Source of the DNA: an uncultured bacterium
GTDB taxonomy: Bacteria; CAIJMQ01
Direction of reading: 5' to 3'
Assembly: GCA_964573245.1 (NCBI GenBank)
Contig: CAZNJA010000010.1
Coordinates: 1 to 37,775 of the forward strand
Length of the DNA: 37,775 nt
Below, in pieces: positions 8,425-27,171 of the stretch (position 1 is the stretch's first letter; every line of letters begins with the position of its first letter). The position numbers and the translations under genes are program-made. The notes under the pieces are model-generated. The model was given only the letters and a program-made list of their open reading frames with translations, was not told the DNA's origin and did not search any database.

Positions 8425-10132
8425 TGCTGGGCATATTTGTCCTATTATTTTTTGTACTCTCTGTTTTCCCTTTTTCGGTGCTCTCAAATTTTCCCGTTTC
8501 TGCCAGAGGTGTTTTTTTCACTTGTTCCCCTATTTTACCGGGCAGCATCGCAACAATTTCTCTTTCCTTCAGCCCGCTCCTTATCTCTACCATATCGGTG
8601 CTGCTGCTGCCGAGCGCAACTTCTCTAATTTCAATCCTGTTCCCTTTAAGAACAGCGCACACGGATTTCCCTTCTCTTTGTGATATCACCGTCAGAGGGA
8701 CGACCAAAACATCTTCTAATTTTTCGACTAGGATTTCTACTTCTGCGGATAAGCCCGGCTTTAGGCGAGCAAGATTCTGCCCATCTCTGTCAAGAGAAAT
8801 TTCGACAAGATAGACATTAAGGTCGGGATTCATCCACTTGAAAGTGGCATCAGGGAAAGCGGCAACTTTTTTAACTTCTCCTGTAAATTGCTCCCTGCCG
8901 CGAGCATCCACTTTTACGATAGCTTGCTGTTGGGGTTTTATTTTTTCTATCGAAGCCTCATGAATCTTAACTTCCACACCCATACTGCTGAAATCCGGGA
9001 GGTTTAATAAATCCTGCCTATAATAAACATTTGTGCCGGGTTGAATCGGGTCTTGCGAGCGCCAGGGATTGCTGCTTGTCGCATATGTAACAAGACCCGG
9101 CTGTGTTGCCCTGATCGTGCATTTGGCAATGTTCTCTTCTACCTCTGACAGGTTGTTTTTACGCTCTAAATATGTGGCTTCTTTACTCTTAACATCCGCT
9201 TCTGCCTTAATAATCTCCGATTCGCATTTGGCTTGTGTCCTATCCAACTCTTTTATGGATTCCTGATAATTGGAAAGAAGCAACGCCACCTGTTTGGGGA
9301 AGTCATAATCCAGAAAAAGTTGATATGCTAATTTAGCACTTTCCAAAGAAGCTTCTTTTTGTTGAAGTGAAAATCGGTCCGCATCCAACTCACTTTTTGT
9401 TATATATTCTTTTTCGGCTAACTTTTCACTCCATTGGACGGTGTCTTGCGCCCGGGCAACCTCCTCCTTTGCAAGTTCTATATTGTTTTCGAGTTCCCTT
9501 TTTTTGTTAAGGGCTTCCCCTTCCAGTTTCGGATTTGCTATTAAGGCGACAAAGTCTATACTTTCGTCCTCATTTATAATAAGCTCACCGGCTAATTCTT
9601 CCCCTAAGTATTTTTCTAAATCTATCTTTTCGAATTTGACATTCAGCTGTGCCTGTTTGATATCGCTGTCATTCTGCTTCCTCTGTATCTCGAGATTCTG
9701 CTGTGCCTGTGTGTAAGAAGACAAACTGTTTTCCACGGTTATCCTAAGTTCTTCCGCGCGGTCTTCCAAATCCTTAGAATCAAGTTTAATGAGAATTTTA
9801 CTGTCCTGAATATCCTGTTCGGTAATCAGAACTCCTTCATCGACCACTTCAAGAATATTCCTCTGTCCCGGGACATCGTTGGTAATCTTCTGGGAACGAA
9901 GCGCTTTGAGACTCCCGCCTTCCATGACGGATATAACCAGATTCTGTCTTTTCACCTGGTAAGTAATAAGTCCCTCCATCCTCTTTTTATTTTGAATAAA
10001 CCCGTTAAGAAGCAAGATTAAACATATCAAAACGATCCCGCTTACAAAGAAAAACTTTCTTTTACCATACAGTGTCTTATTCCATACAAAATCGAGATAG
10101 GATTTAGTATTCTTCGCCACTGATTTTCTCAT
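8417..10132 (-). CDS. Efflux periplasmic adaptor (MFP) with very long coiled-coil hairpin
   Basis: N-terminal TM, long helical segment, CTIRATQPGLV, LKPGLSAEVEI and VEIRSGLKERE motifs; start MRKSV after AAGGAG. Confidence 0.9.
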   Translation of the reverse strand: MRKSVAKNTKSYLDFVWNKTLYGKRKFFFVSGIVLICLILLLNGFIQNKKRMEGLITYQVKRQNLVISVMEGGSLKALRSQKITNDVPGQRNILEVVDEGVLITEQDIQDSKILIKLDSKDLEDRAEELRITVENSLSSYTQAQQNLEIQRKQNDSDIKQAQLNVKFEKIDLEKYLGEELAGELIINEDESIDFVALIANPKLEGEALNKKRELENNIELAKEEVARAQDTVQWSEKLAEKEYITKSELDADRFSLQQKEASLESAKLAYQLFLDYDFPKQVALLLSNYQESIKELDRTQAKCESEIIKAEADVKSKEATYLERKNNLSEVEENIAKCTIRATQPGLVTYATSSNPWRSQDPIQPGTNVYYRQDLLNLPDFSSMGVEVKIHEASIEKIKPQQQAIVKVDARGREQFTGEVKKVAAFPDATFKWMNPDLNVYLVEISLDRDGQNLARLKPGLSAEVEILVEKLEDVLVVPLTVISQREGKSVCAVLKGNRIEIREVALGSSSTDMVEIRSGLKEREIVAMLPGKIGEQVKKTPLAETGKFESTEKGKTESTKNNRTNMPSNE

Positions 10133-11741
10133 AAAGGTCTCCTTTCCATACTCCGCTTTCATCAATTTCTAAAGTTTCGGTGTCCCTTAAAAACTCCAGA
10201 TAAGAAACCAAATAGTTTACAATTGCACTTGACAGGGAATTTTTCGCATTCAGATATGCTTCCTGGGCTTCCAATAAATCTCTCGTGGTAGCCCTTCCGG
10301 CCTGAAGCAGCAAATCAGTCCCTTCAACTCTTTTTTGCGCAAGTTCAACACTTTTTCCCTGTATCAGATAGCTTTGGTAAGCTTCCTCCAGATTCCTGCA
10401 CAGATTAAGTATTTCAAGTTTTATGGAGTCTTCCGTATTTCCCACATTACGTTTAGCCCTGTCAAAATTAATCAAGGCTTGCACGTACGTGTTCCTTTCT
10501 TCGACTTTGTTTACGGGAAGCTCCCAATCCAATCCTGCCGTATAATAAGGTTTTTCAAAATCGTCCAATTCGAAAGAAAGTTTATTTTCTGAAAGCGGCG
10601 AACGCGTTTCAACGCCGAGTTTTAAATCAAGTTGTGTTCTCAAGGCACTCAAAGCCACATCCGCATTTCTTTTGCTGTCTTCCAATCGGTCGCGGGACGT
10701 GAGCAAATCAAGCCGTTTGTCAAGGGCCAATTTAATAGAATCCGCAGGGTCTATCTGTATTTGTGCTATCCCCTTGTCCAAAAACCGTTCCAACCCCTTC
10801 TCTTCAACCATAATATTCGCATCCGGGGACAGCCCCAAAAATATTTTAAATTCATCCAAAAGCCGCTGGTAGTTATTATTCGCGCTAATCCAGCTTTGGT
10901 TCGCCCTATATTCGTCCTGCCTTGTTTGGTCCACTCCCATGGGAGTCTCCCTACCGGCTTCGGAAAGCATTTCTATCCTTTCCCTTGTTTGCTTTAAGTA
11001 AGTGTAATTCGTACGGTAATTTTCAAGAGTGTTCTTCGTTTCTAAAAGAGTGTAATATTTATCCGCAACGGTTACGGAAAAATCCCGCTGGTATTTCAAG
11101 AATGTCCTTATCTGATAAATGGCATCTCTTTCCGCCTGAATTAAATCTGCTTGGGCAACGCTTCTGCCCGCACCTCTGAAAAGCGGCTGCAAGACATCCA
11201 ATCCGACAACCGTTTGGAAATTTTCGGCACTGTCTTCGACCATCAGGTCTCGGGAATATTCCTCTACAACGTTCAATGAAATCTGTGTGCCCTGCGCAAG
11301 CCATTGAATAAGGCCCAAATTCAAATCCGCGCTTATATCCTTTGTGTTTTCGTCCGCCGTCCACGTTACCGAACCGCCAACTCCGTATCTTAAATGATAA
11401 GAATGCCTGCGCGAAACCAAAGATAAAGTTTGAAGATATACATCCTCTTTCGCAGTTTGATAGTCGCGGTTATTTCTGGTGGCTATAATAAGAGCGTCTT
11501 TGAGAGTTAACGGGACCCCTTCGCTTATCAATTCTTTATCTTTTTTGGAATCGATATCCCAAGGAATTTTTTCGGTGGTGACTTCTTTTGTTTTTCTCTC
11601 CAGTATTTTATAAACTTCCTTATTTACAGAATTTCTCATACGCGAAGAGGCGCATCCCGTCAACAAGAAAATCGTGGATGCCGCTATCAAAGGTTTAAGA
11701 TACCTATGATAACCTCGTTTATTTGTGCAAATTTTAGGCAT
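10104..11741 (-). CDS. TolC family outer-membrane efflux lipoprotein
   Basis: Lipobox LTGC; LTLKDALIIA, QPLFRGAG and AGRATTRDLLEAQ motifs; first gene of the MFP/ABC operon. Confidence 0.9.
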   Translation of the reverse strand: MPKICTNKRGYHRYLKPLIAASTIFLLTGCASSRMRNSVNKEVYKILERKTKEVTTEKIPWDIDSKKDKELISEGVPLTLKDALIIATRNNRDYQTAKEDVYLQTLSLVSRRHSYHLRYGVGGSVTWTADENTKDISADLNLGLIQWLAQGTQISLNVVEEYSRDLMVEDSAENFQTVVGLDVLQPLFRGAGRSVAQADLIQAERDAIYQIRTFLKYQRDFSVTVADKYYTLLETKNTLENYRTNYTYLKQTRERIEMLSEAGRETPMGVDQTRQDEYRANQSWISANNNYQRLLDEFKIFLGLSPDANIMVEEKGLERFLDKGIAQIQIDPADSIKLALDKRLDLLTSRDRLEDSKRNADVALSALRTQLDLKLGVETRSPLSENKLSFELDDFEKPYYTAGLDWELPVNKVEERNTYVQALINFDRAKRNVGNTEDSIKLEILNLCRNLEEAYQSYLIQGKSVELAQKRVEGTDLLLQAGRATTRDLLEAQEAYLNAKNSLSSAIVNYLVSYLEFLRDTETLEIDESGVWKGDLYEKISGEEY

Positions 11742-12675: not shown

Positions 12676-13671
12676 TCAAAATTCGTTGTCTGCTTCGTCT
12701 CCGAGATAGGAGTTGTCTTTCAAAAGATAATTTTTCACATAGTTCGATACGGACTCTTGAAGAGTATGAATTTTCTTTTTATATCCCTCTTCTTTTAATT
12801 TCGTCATATCGGCTTGAGTAAAATATTGATATTTATCTTCTATTGAATCCGGCATATCTATGTATTCTATCTTGATATCTTTACCCATAGATTCAAAGAC
12901 CGCTTTTACAAGTTCGTTGAAACTTCGCGCTTTTCCTGTCCCGATATTGAAAATTCCATTTGCTTTTTTGTTTTCGGATATAAACAGCGTCATATCTGCC
13001 GCGTCTTTCACGTACACAAAATCCCTTAACTGCTCCCCATCTTTATATTGGGACTTAAGCGATTTGAAAAGTTTGACCTTTCCGTCTCGTTTTATTTGCT
13101 CGAACGCCTGCAATATCATGCTTCTCATACTTCCTTTGTGATATTCGTTTGGACCGAAGCAATTGAAATATTTTAATCCTGCTATTTTTTCCAGCAACTC
13201 CTGCCTATAAGCCCATAAATCGAAGGAGTGTTTAGAATGGGCATATGGATTCAATGGCTTCAATTGTTCAAGTTGAGAGTGTTCGTCTGAAAAGCCCTGT
13301 TTTCCGTCTCCGTATGTTGCAGCAGAAGAAGCATATACAAATCTTTTGTTATTATTGACACACCATATCGCAAGTTTTTTTGTATATTCAAAATTATTTT
13401 GAGTAAGGTATTCGACATCATAAACGGTTGTAGAACTTTCCGCACCCAGGTGGATTATCTCGCCTATCTTGTCGGAGAGCCTGCCTTGCTGTAATTTTTC
13501 GATGAATTCATCTTTATCTATAAAATCCTCAAATTTTAAGCGAGCGAGATTCTTAATTTTGTTTTGTTTGTCGCTGTCATCAACAATCAAAATATCACTC
13601 TTCCCACCTTTATTAAGCGCCCAGACAATAGCACTGCCGATAAACCCTGCTGCTCCGGTTACTATAATCAT
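12676..13671 (-). CDS. hldD: ADP-L-glycero-D-manno-heptose 6-epimerase
   Basis: MIIVTGAAGFIGS, YASSAATYG, PLNPYAHSK, YFNCFGPNEYHKGSM and YQYFTQAD motifs; true start at 13671. Confidence 0.95.
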   Translation of the reverse strand: MIIVTGAAGFIGSAIVWALNKGGKSDILIVDDSDKQNKIKNLARLKFEDFIDKDEFIEKLQQGRLSDKIGEIIHLGAESSTTVYDVEYLTQNNFEYTKKLAIWCVNNNKRFVYASSAATYGDGKQGFSDEHSQLEQLKPLNPYAHSKHSFDLWAYRQELLEKIAGLKYFNCFGPNEYHKGSMRSMILQAFEQIKRDGKVKLFKSLKSQYKDGEQLRDFVYVKDAADMTLFISENKKANGIFNIGTGKARSFNELVKAVFESMGKDIKIEYIDMPDSIEDKYQYFTQADMTKLKEEGYKKKIHTLQESVSNYVKNYLLKDNSYLGDEADNEF

Positions 13672-25525: not shown

Positions 25526-26260
25526 TCAAATCTCACAACTGCAAGCAAGCGTTATTACATTTATTTGTTTTACTCTTGCTTTACGGATCTCTTTTGCGCA
25601 TTCGTTTACTGTTGAACCTGTAGTAAAAACATCGTCTAGGAGAAGAATGTTTTTATTTTCGAGAATTTCAGGGTTTTTTACTCTGAACGCATCTTTGACA
25701 TTTTTGACTCTTTGCTTAACAGAAAGAGTTGTCTGGGATGGGGTTCTTTTACATTTCATCAATCTGTCGGATAAAATCGGCACACCGATTTTTTTGCTTA
25801 TTTCGCGAGCCAAAAGTTCGGTCTGATTATAACCCCTTTTGAATTTATCGAACCGATGCATAGGAACGGGAAGGATAAAATCGATATCTTTTAAATCATC
25901 GCTTTCGGATATTTTTTTTATAAGAAACCCCGCTAAAAGTCTATCCAAATAATCGTTTTTGCCATATTTGAAAAGGTGAATCAATTTCCTAAAAACATCC
26001 TCATATATAGCGATGTGAAAAGCTCCGTCGAAAAAAAGTTTTGGTTTTTTGTTACATTTGGAACAAATATGAGAATTGGAAGGCCTTCCGCACTTTTCGC
26101 ATATGGGAGAGACAACGAATTTTATTTTTTTGAAACAATCGGCGCAGAGATATTCGTTGCCCGGTTCTTCGATGGGAAGAACCGAACCACAAACAAAGCA
26201 CTTAAGAGGATAAATAAGATTTAAGCAAAACCTGAAGTATTTGCGAATGACTTTAAACAC
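25526..26260 (-). CDS. comF: ComF family protein (double zinc ribbon plus PRTase domain)
   Basis: CFVC/CADC/CEKC/CSKC, PVPMH...RGYNQ and LLLDDVFTTGSTVNEC motifs; probable GTG start at 26260, although the frame is open to 26371. Confidence 0.92.
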   Translation of the reverse strand: MFKVIRKYFRFCLNLIYPLKCFVCGSVLPIEEPGNEYLCADCFKKIKFVVSPICEKCGRPSNSHICSKCNKKPKLFFDGAFHIAIYEDVFRKLIHLFKYGKNDYLDRLLAGFLIKKISESDDLKDIDFILPVPMHRFDKFKRGYNQTELLAREISKKIGVPILSDRLMKCKRTPSQTTLSVKQRVKNVKDAFRVKNPEILENKNILLLDDVFTTGSTVNECAKEIRKARVKQINVITLACSCEI

Positions 26261-26279
26261 GAAACTATCAACTTTCTTA

Positions 26280-26350
26280 TGGTGGAGCAGACCGGGATTG
26301 AACCGGCGACTTTCCCGACGTAACGTCGGGACGCTCTCCCGAATTGACCA
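26280..26350 (-). pseudogene. tRNA-Ala-derived partial duplicate with palindromic anticodon-arm replacement
   Basis: 31-nt exact match to the tRNA 3' end including CCA (26280-26310) plus the GGGAGAGCG D-arm remnant; no 5' acceptor strand. Confidence 0.85.
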
Positions 26351-26384
26351 ATAATATAATCTTGTATCCAAGTAAGAAATGAGC

Positions 26385-26460
26385 TGGTGGAGCAGACCGG
26401 GATTGAACCGGCGACCTCATCCATGCGAAGGATGCGCTCTCCCAGCTGAGCTACTGCCCC
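26385..26460 (-). tRNA. tRNA-Ala (anticodon CGC)
   Basis: 76-nt cloverleaf GGGGCAG...CATCC-TTCGCAT-GGATG...GGTTCAATCC...CTGCTCCACCA; G3:U70; encoded CCA. Confidence 0.97.
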
Positions 26461-26468
26461 GATTGCGT

Positions 26469-26498
26469 ATTCTACTTAAATGCTAAAACCGCTGTCAA
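26469..26498 (-). promoter_or_regulatory. Sigma70 promoter of tRNA-Ala
   Basis: TTGACA-N18-TAGAAT ending 8 nt upstream of the tRNA. Confidence 0.75.
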
Positions 26499-26750
26499 AC
26501 TTTCTTGCTTGGTCTATGATAGATGCATAGAATTTCAAAAGGTGTAAATGACCTTCTCCTTACCCACCCATTTGAACAGGCGAGGATGTTGAGGTTTTGC
26601 TAGGGAGGTGTTTTCTTTTGAAGCCTGTTGGAACGTGATATCTAAAAAATTAATAGACTATTCTTAGATAAATATATGATTCCAAAACTGAAACCCCATG
26701 ATATATATCATTAGATTCGTTTCTCATCTCAGGAGAGCGCTATTCATTTT

Positions 26751-26960
26751 TTATTCTGAAGCTTTCGCTACATTGGAAGCTTGCGGACCCTTGTCGCCTT
26801 TGGAAATTTCGAATTCGACCTTGTCGCCTTCTCGCAATGTTTTGAACCCAGCGCCTTGAATAGCGCTGTAGTGCACGAAACAATCTTCGCTTCCGTCGTC
26901 AGGGGTAATGAACCCATACCCTTTCTTTTCGTTGAACCATTTTACTGTTCCTACTGCCAT
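26751..26960 (-). CDS. cspA: Cold-shock protein
   Basis: [18 protein letters not shown]...FVHYSAI...KGPQA; GGAGGTG RBS. Confidence 0.96.
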
Positions 26961-27171
26961 GCTTATATCACCTCCCTCTTTGCAAAAAAATACCGCAAGA
27001 GAAATTATCCTTTCGCTTGTCTTCGCCAATTAAATGAAAACAGGCGGGATATTCCCTCACGGATAAAATTTATGTTTCTCTGCTTCCCGTAAAAGCAAAC
27101 AACCTGCTCACTTCTGCTGATAATTCTTAGCAATACCAATTTAACTATATCCTTAATAACTTTCGAAGCGA

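Follow-up and report, generated by a model that had tools for sequence, protein, structure and literature searches.

The stretch of DNA considered here (37,775 nt, contig CAZNJA010000010.1 of assembly GCA_964573245.1, from an uncultured bacterium, henceforth the window) contains a gene for tRNA-Ala(CGC), followed by a second, incomplete copy of that tRNA in which a GC-rich palindrome stands in place of the anticodon arm, and then by a gene of the comF type. What is a copy of a tRNA without an anticodon doing there? It might be a tRNA-like RNA, a scar left by an integrated island, a signal that serves comF, or a part of something mobile. The reading I consider probable is that the copy is a dead partial duplicate of tRNA-Ala, its anticodon arm overwritten by NN-CCGACGTNACGTCGG-NN, and that it represents the nuclease-less end of a tRNA-embedded cassette made up of a GIY-YIG nuclease gene and a hairpin. 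The hairpin marks tRNA-embedded cassettes of one GIY-YIG subfamily, in this genome and in distant phyla.

I will refer to the genome of the window (1.456 Mb) as G000, to its contigs by C numbers, to three congeners as G001 to G003, and to loci collected elsewhere by L numbers.

The partial copy and its surroundings

The tRNA, the spacer, the partial copy and comF all lie on the minus strand (Table 1). The copy begins with the base that corresponds to tRNA position 18 and lacks the 5' acceptor strand. Nine nucleotides of the D arm (GGGAGAGCG) lead into an arm of 19 nt, TCCCGACG-TTA-CGTCGGGA (or, written otherwise, TC-CCGACGTTACGTCGG-GA), standing where the tRNA has an anticodon arm of 17 nt. 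The 15-nt core of the palindromic arm is found at 26315-26329, and the arm folded as DNA gives -9.1 kcal/mol (z -3.5). The dinucleotide AA stands between it and an exact repeat of the last 31 nt of the tRNA, a 31-mer present at two sites in the whole genome, both at this locus. An earlier reading of the sequence by itself (the original prediction) had described this arrangement: a second copy with an identical 31-nt 3' part and a retained 3' half of the D arm, its 5' acceptor strand missing and its anticodon arm exchanged for an 8-bp palindrome with TTA at the apex. All this stands, except that the spacer, put at about 35 nt, measures 44 nt.

The copy is a partial duplicate of the neighboring tRNA-Ala and not itself a tRNA. 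When tRNA finders were run, as had been proposed, ARAGORN and Infernal called the real tRNA; for the copy there was no call by ARAGORN and none by the Rfam tRNA model with Infernal at E-values up to 10. In place of a 5-bp anticodon stem with a 7-nt loop, its 19-nt arm has a stem of 8 bp and a loop of 3 nt. The copy in the window is probably inert.

Nor is it an artefact of assembly, a danger to which the original prediction had drawn attention. The independent assembly of the congener G003 has the same layout, and Logan unitigs from runs X1 to X3 (the source sample is possibly among them) cover the locus. The unitigs of X1 and X3 cover 26280/1 to 26414/5 (135 nt) with no differences, while those of X2 cover 26190-26309 and 26314-26414, including the passage from the comF leader into the copy. 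Unitigs end at the 31-nt repeat because k-mer graphs must break there. One RNA run, X19, covers only the tRNA itself (26385-26460), with reads that probably come from many organisms.

The comF frame (open reading frame, or ORF, 25526..26371) runs open across the partial copy, as had been noticed, and the GTG at 26260, 20 nt past the CCA of the copy, where the start had been expected, is invariant in all four congeners. It is most likely the start of comF, which is a neighbor of the element and not its part. No other copies of the spacer or of the leader were found in the genome. The spacer contains no GIY-YIG remnant, being too short for one, and the contig of the window has no match to an integrase, a GIY-YIG protein or a Y1 transposase, which extends the earlier remark that no integrase lies between the copies. 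As there is no small GIY-YIG ORF in the window, the locus is filed as a solo end or relic: the nuclease-less end and not a full member of the cassette class.

Table 1. Features of the tRNA-Ala(CGC) locus, in the order of transcription
Feature	Position	Strand	Basis or remarks
Promoter-like site, TTGACA-18 nt-TAGAAT	26469..26498	-	11/12 consensus matches; 9 nt upstream of tRNA
Functional tRNA-Ala(CGC), CCA encoded	26385..26460	-	ARAGORN; Rfam RF00005, 61.5 bits, E 1.8e-12
AT-rich spacer, 44 nt, tRNA to partial copy	26341..26384	-	Sequence
Partial tRNA-Ala copy, 61 nt, tRNA positions 18-76	26280..26340	-	Sequence comparison
3' half of D arm in copy, 9 nt, tRNA positions 18-26	26332..26340	-	Identity
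Palindromic arm, 19 nt	26313..26331	-	8-bp stem, 3-nt loop
Variable loop, T arm, 3' acceptor strand and CCA of copy	26280..26310	-	Exact 31-nt direct repeat of 26385-26415
Leader, CCA of copy to comF start codon, 19 nt	26261..26279	-	Sequence, congener alignment
comF-type gene, GTG start	25526..26260	-	Pfam DZR_2 (47 bits) and Pribosyltran (32 bits)

The promoter-like site, recognized by its match to the consensus alone, keeps both TTGACA and TAGAAT in the alignment of the four congeners. Rows of 17 bits for the Rfam family 'Plastid-ycf2' on the opposite strand were set aside as noise. Farther upstream, a match to the Rfam cspA thermoregulator (26688-27084, minus strand) falls below threshold (41 bits, against a gathering score of 78) and covers the leader and coding region of a cold-shock-domain gene (26754-27029).

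The hairpin in this genome and across phyla

The original prediction asked whether the palindrome, and tRNA copies plugged by it, occur elsewhere in the genome and in its relatives. They do: the locus is not unique. The genome contains 17 copies of the 15-nt palindrome CCGACGTNACGTCGG (any base allowed at the center), and 28 loci with hairpin-plugged tRNA copies were collected across phyla. The form with TTA or TAA at the center, CCGACGTTACGTCGG, accounts for 15 copies in the genome, against none for the reversed control, and the stem core CCGAY-N3-9-RTCGG is present 59 times, against 7 for its reversed control. Variants with compensatory changes are also present, such as CCGATGTTACATCGG. Eleven of the 17 palindromes lie outside ORFs of at least 120 amino acids, though such ORFs (a crude map) fill 87% of the genome. 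Among the 41 genomes searched, relatives included, seven carry the palindrome: all four of the genus, the single one from another genus of the family, two of three from another family in the class, and none of the 33 others.

Five of the 17 palindromes sit at the anticodon-arm position of tRNA copies. These are the one in the window, three in 5' copies of tRNA-Val on contig C14, and one in a 3' copy of tRNA-Ala(GGC) on C58, where the 3' end of the tRNA is followed by a spacer of about 100 nt and then by the hairpin-plugged copy. A sixth tRNA-linked palindrome is found between two tRNA-Met genes.

The C14 locus has a nuclease of the kind that the window lacks. Pfam finds seven GIY-YIG matches in the genome, one of them UvrC and the other six ORFs of about 80-105 amino acids. 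The ORF at C14:13244-13510 (89 amino acids; PF01541, 51 bits over residues 3-71) lies between the real tRNA-Val(GAC) at 13159-13235 and a hairpin-bearing 3' copy of tRNA-Val at 13571-13618. Upstream are at least three tandem units of 108 nt (a run of N interrupts the array), each consisting of tRNA-Val positions 1-26, the hairpin arm and the variable loop, so that hairpins occur upstream of the ORF and once more 60 nt downstream of it. GIY-YIG nucleases had been named beforehand as possible partners of the palindrome, and the small genes here and at the cross-phylum loci bear this out. The C14 protein is 36-52% identical to 14 hairpin-linked proteins and 32-42% identical to its own paralogues, and it has in common with the hairpin-linked proteins a C-terminal stretch, LKxLKxRxIIExI. 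NCBIfam offers only a sub-threshold match to the N-terminal part (TIGR01453, 25 bits, against a cut-off of 56), and the best solved relatives are the UPF0213 proteins 1zg2 and 1ywl.

Several other arrangements of tRNA pieces in G000 were seen along the way. A hairpin repeat of about 45 nt (CTCCGAAGAG...CTTTCGGAG; C14:13528-13573, or about 1779-1824 of L030) is nested in the Val 3' copy, and has at least 12 dispersed copies, 88-100% identical, in the congener G002. At C14:12662-12770 a 5' fragment of tRNA-Val (positions 1-18) has its D loop split by about 75 nt of hairpin-rich sequence and resumes with GGTTAGAGCAC. A different GIY-YIG arrangement is found at tRNA-Gln(CTG) (C1:9943-10391, L027): positions 1-36 of the tRNA, cut exactly after the anticodon, then hairpins of another family (CCATGAACC...GGTTCATGG), a GIY-YIG ORF of 87 amino acids (10068-10280) and the intact tRNA-Gln (10317-10391), with no palindrome of the CCGAC type. 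At C23:2-480 (L028), tRNA-Ser(GGA) is followed by GC-rich hairpins and a GIY-YIG ORF of 81 amino acids (234-437), with no partial Ser copy seen downstream. Finally, tRNA-Lys(TTT) has an isolated fragment (positions 9-41, 97% identity) at C11:25948-25980, without a palindrome and at a distance of 3 kb from the gene itself.

The cross-phylum loci come from a scan of one genome per species for a pattern consisting of the hairpin, 11 nt and the T loop. It matched 29 stretches, which amount to 28 non-overlapping loci (L044 overlaps L043 on the same contig and is left out of the counts), in Patescibacteria lineages, in metagenome-assembled genomes of Gammaproteobacteria and Planctomycetia, and in others. 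A search of viral contigs with the same pattern gave no matches. Nearly all the loci (26/28) have a same-strand tRNA nearby, and the T arms and acceptor strands of the copies match the local tRNA. A single-domain GIY-YIG ORF of about 90 amino acids abuts the structure at 15 of the 28. Directly 5' of the palindrome, GAGC plus 3 nt is found at 21 loci, a feature not imposed by the search pattern; the stem is extended by two complementary pairs at 25, and the center base of the palindrome may be A, C, G or T. One locus, L042 (Ruminiclostridium), is probably a chance match, with no tRNA context and unpaired flanks, and L040 is a degenerate case.

Two layouts recur. In one, the nuclease ORF starts 2-10 nt past the tRNA and is followed by the hairpin and the 3' part of the tRNA, the stop codon of the ORF being the TAG of TAGAGC in the D region of the copy. 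In the other, a hairpin-plugged 5' copy precedes the nuclease ORF, which takes its stop codon from the real tRNA (TAG, positions 8-10), and a hairpin-plugged 3' copy follows. L051 provides an example at tRNA-Ala(CGC) itself, where the nuclease gene precedes the tRNA and two plugged copies follow it. Downstream copies also follow tRNAs for Val, Ile, Arg, Pro, Thr and Gly, beside unrelated genes, and the family includes members cut at other points: 5' types, tandem arrays and copies with nested insertions. On full-length plugged copies ARAGORN may take the center of the palindrome for an anticodon, as it does for L033 (tRNA-Stop(tta)), L053 (tRNA-SeC(tca)) and L057 (tRNA-Leu(taa)).

The association may also be approached from the side of the protein. 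Four proteins of the subfamily were used as queries against metagenome contigs, and 80 of 155 relatives were analysed. In this set a same-strand tRNA abuts the ORF at 72 loci, with none on either side at the remaining 8. The tRNA lies just downstream at 61, and in 30 of these it starts 6-11 nt before the end of the frame; at the other 11 it lies 3-29 nt upstream. The hairpin CCGAY-N3-9-RTCGG accompanies 61 of the 80 loci (46 of 60 when redundancy is removed), against 1 of 80 for the reversed control, mostly at 7-134 nt from the nuclease ORF. The apical letters borne by the CCGAY/RTCGG stem vary between lineages, and most relatives differ from the window in this respect.

Within G000 the hairpin is found in repeats that have nothing to do with tRNA. 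One is a miniature inverted-repeat element with the termini ACCCCGTTAGAGATAG and CTATCTCTAACGGGGT, represented by 76 half-sites and possessing a subterminal hairpin of variable sequence. Some forms measure about 70 nt and have two hairpins, others about 125-150 nt (C6:22223-22293, C5:31325-31395 and C3:26779-26915 are examples), and some copies lie inside ORFs. In about nine copies the CCGAY...RTCGG hairpin takes the exact place of the usual subterminal hairpin. The other is a family of GC-rich hairpins, CCCGCCTGCTTGC-loop-GCGGGCAGG, of which five of seven members have small loops and two have the palindrome in the loop. Taken together, the tRNA copies, the miniature element and the GC-rich family suggest that the hairpin overwrites or caps existing hairpins. 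Five cross-phylum genomes have 2-5 palindrome sites each, and the 14 (of 15) that were looked at all belong to cassette loci; the palindrome being confined in this way, its spread beyond tRNA genes is special to the genus of the window among those checked. A second GC-rich motif (CCCGCCTGC... / ...GCAGGCGGG) accompanies the palindrome at the Patescibacteria loci L031, L036 and L050, and the same motif is found in G000 at C2:22730, C23:12178 and C82:5208.

Gain, loss and origin of the block

An alignment of the Ala locus from G000 to G003 shows that G000 and G003 carry a block of 105 nt that is missing from G001 and G002, where the comF leader comes directly after tRNA-Ala, with the same synteny and the same GTG. 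The block is dispensable for the tRNA-comF arrangement. When G000 is compared with G003, the segments of the locus have diverged to very different degrees. From the D piece through the hairpin arm to AA, 29 of 30 positions are identical, close to the tRNA itself (74/76), as are 10 of 11 in the 3' acceptor strand of the copy; the spacer agrees in 25 of 48 aligned columns (0.52), the variable loop and T arm of the copy at 11 of 20 positions, the leader at 6 of 19 and the region of the comF start at 80 of 111. L052 is identical to G003 across the locus.

The Val locus on C14 is also polymorphic: G000 and G002 carry the cassette there, and G001 and G003 have a clean empty site. The patterns at the two loci are incongruent: one event per locus fits no tree of G000 to G003, and the blocks have therefore been gained or lost repeatedly. 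That filled and empty sites disagree between the Ala and Val loci of a single genus is a sign that gain and loss are ongoing.

How might such a block come and go? It would be gained by break-repair copying, with the halves of the tRNA serving as homology arms, and recombination between the 31-nt direct repeats would remove it again, leaving a clean tRNA-comF junction like that in G001 and G002. The hairpin, by analogy with the Ssn family discussed below, may be the structure that the nuclease recognizes in single-stranded DNA. A solo end such as that in the window could be left by deletion of the nuclease or be made in trans, and the copy would contribute nothing to translation, nor would it serve the expression of comF in any dedicated way.

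A number of observations weigh against the cassette as the source of the copy. The window has no nuclease gene, nor have 13 of the 28 cross-phylum loci, and the link to the nuclease here therefore rests on the shared hairpin and layout. The 15-nt palindrome, even with one mismatch allowed, is found at only 5 of the 80 protein-first loci. A maximum-likelihood tree of GIY-YIG proteins leaves 14 of its 18 inner branches open, and three changes are needed to account for the hairpin-linked set, so no hairpin-linked clade is claimed. G003, which has the Ala copy, has no close orthologue of the C14 nuclease (the best match is 42% identical, in an assembly 81% complete). Finally, the copy in G003 has a well-paired T arm (GGGAG/CTCCT) that differs by compensatory changes from every tRNA found in G000 to G004; it has no match elsewhere in those genomes, and its nearest counterpart among the loci collected is the tRNA-Ala of L070, with three mismatches. 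Simple duplication in place is therefore no explanation for the deviating arm. The arm fits either of two histories: the block was imported from a donor whose tRNA-Ala is a different one, or the copy in G000 underwent gene conversion by its neighbor.

The rival with the most to be said for it differs from the favored reading in origin only: the locus was never a full cassette, but a miniature non-autonomous element or a tandem duplicate of the 3' end of the tRNA; a nuclease encoded elsewhere supplied its hairpin in trans, and it may still be mobilisable. The spacer without an ORF remnant would be explained in this way, as would the copies at several loci such as L035, L036, L037, L041 and L045, which lie about 10-50 nt from the tRNA with no nuclease within 1.5 kb. 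A matching nuclease is encoded on C14, and the replacement or capping of hairpins in non-tRNA repeats by this same hairpin suggests that something does act in trans. Deletion of the nuclease is equally compatible with these facts, however; direct evidence of action in trans is lacking, and the Val cassettes of G000 and G002 are about 80% identical, the same level as their flanks, which suggests vertical descent with losses. I regard an origin in trans as possible but doubtful.

The remaining explanations have far less in their favor. Integration into a tRNA gene classically leaves its 3' end directly repeated (PMC9897764), and the copy might be the attachment-site scar of a tyrosine-integrase island that entered tRNA-Ala and was later deleted. 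But nine nucleotides of D arm continue 5' of the replaced arm, and the original prediction was right to argue that a plain scar would not preserve sequence to either side of an exchanged arm. Moreover, only 44 nt separate the repeats, the only two matches to Phage_integrase (PF00589) are on C13 and C42, and plugged copies elsewhere abut GIY-YIG genes and not integrases, all of which makes a scar scarcely credible. Somewhat less remote, yet still very unlikely, is the suggestion that the copy acts in cis as an RNA element of the comF leader (a processing site, stabilizer or attenuator). It does lie on the way from a promoter-driven tRNA to comF, with nothing like a terminator in between, and G000 and G003 share a conserved hairpin arm. 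Against a comF signal stand G001 and G002, which dispense with the block despite the same synteny and start, and the same structure following six other kinds of tRNA; besides, no run of T follows the hairpin and no Rfam family matches it. A functional tRNA-like RNA, finally, has hardly any probability in my estimation, whether as a long alanine acceptor in which the real 5' strand pairs with the 3' strand of the copy or as a decoy that engages enzymes acting on tRNA. The comF signal and the tRNA-like RNA had both been options of the original prediction, and neither finds support. The 201-nt RNA, in its fold of minimum energy, does join the first 5' strand to the 3' strand of the copy, but the identity of the two 3' strands forces this pairing. 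The T arm in G003 is different yet well formed, but the real tRNA is complete and transcribed first, the copy has no anticodon loop and is rejected by both tRNA finders, and many family members are cut at other points.

The favored reading, of a dead duplicate that was one end of a cassette, may be part of a wider story, which I put forward tentatively and think rather less likely than not to be right in full. The CCGACGTNACGTCGG hairpin would be a micro-element that homes to hairpins, driven by a GIY-YIG nuclease reduced to its catalytic domain and acting on single-stranded DNA, and that overwrites or caps hairpins already present in the DNA. Ancestrally it would have had its niche in a spare copy of a tRNA, at the anticodon arm. 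Where the sole working tRNA lies between two plugged copies, loss of the cassette would need either precise repeat-mediated excision or loss of the tRNA. In the genus of the window the hairpin would have escaped this niche, into the miniature element with terminal inverted repeats and into the loop of the GC-rich hairpin family. If so, a REP-like family of repeats (REP: repetitive extragenic palindrome) has been seeded by a parasite of tRNA, and the spread into unrelated hairpins offers a testable route to such families.

Should the link between nuclease and hairpin hold, the cassette would be a selfish element of minimal size (a coding part of about 270 nt and a 19-nt hairpin), for which tRNA genes serve as a safe harbor across phyla. 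There is a practical side as well: knowing the class clears false suppressor and selenocysteine tRNAs from annotation, especially in Patescibacteria.

Comparison with known systems

Williams is said to have described, in 2002, partial duplicates of tRNAs at the attachment sites of integrases. Such duplicates at attL and attR are treated by van der Gulik et al. (2023, PMC9897764), and, so far as the relevant part of that paper goes, the window has a single feature in common with them: the last 31 nt of the tRNA recur as an exact direct repeat. It differs in having no integrase or island, in the tRNA sequence 5' of the swapped arm, in repeats just 44 nt apart and in the palindrome that replaces the anticodon arm.

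REPs and BIMEs with their RAYT enzymes, and the IS200/IS605 elements, offer another parallel: short dispersed palindromes recognized as hairpins in single-stranded DNA, with solo repeats that far outnumber the enzyme genes. REPs are not known to overwrite the anticodon arms of tRNAs. The hairpin resembles REPs in being a short dispersed palindrome and differs in the class of enzyme, GIY-YIG and not HUH/Y1. The sole match to Y1_Tnp in the genome (PF01797, C12:23931) is on a contig without the palindrome, and a link to RAYT was rejected. The original prediction had offered, as one of its options, the footprint of a REP-like element that targets tRNAs. That was essentially right as to the dispersed palindrome and its recurrence in tRNA copies; the enzyme, however, is not of the RAYT/HUH kind.

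A GIY-YIG nuclease gene among tRNA genes has a precedent in SegB of phage T4, a free-standing homing endonuclease that resides in a tRNA gene cluster, has a recognition site that includes a conserved tRNA (T-loop) motif, and spreads with the surrounding tRNA genes (from the available part of PMC2330249). SegB, however, is a phage enzyme that cuts double-stranded DNA at a 27-bp site, whereas the protein considered here is chromosomal and consists of the catalytic domain alone (89 amino acids). Hairpin repeats, partial tRNA copies and replacement of the arm are not described for SegB in that part of the paper.

The literature search found no paper on tRNA-embedded GIY-YIG cassettes or on tRNA copies with a hairpin in place of an arm, though the supplements of PMC11893778 may list tRNA-adjacent homologues, and the tRNA-embedded nuclease-hairpin element is apparently undescribed. 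The closest described system is that of the Ssn nucleases with their NTS hairpins (Chenal et al., 2025, PMC11893778; described here from part of the paper). Ssn proteins are single-domain GIY-YIG nucleases associated with NTS/SRM hairpin repeats; they bind and cut single-stranded DNA at hairpins that are dispersed in the genome and flank their own genes, and any letters are tolerated in the loop. The Discussion of the same paper draws a parallel to systems of the REP/RAYT type. The present hairpin has a different sequence, and the nuclease is at most a candidate member of Ssn (CDD cd10448), its best solved relatives being UPF0213 proteins. Unlike Ssn, the module is embedded in tRNA genes, with partial duplication of the tRNA and a swapped anticodon arm; the main text of PMC11893778 does not contain the word 'tRNA'. 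The resemblances are nevertheless extensive: a nuclease of about 90 amino acids with the GIY-YIG domain alone (outside the window, in the ORF on C14), a conserved hairpin that flanks its gene (at C14 and in most of the protein-first loci), often on both sides, and a repeat dispersed in the genome, in 17 exact and 59 core-motif copies here, whose loop letters are free. If the link between nuclease and hairpin holds, tRNA genes would provide a second natural context for Ssn-type nucleases of single-stranded DNA.

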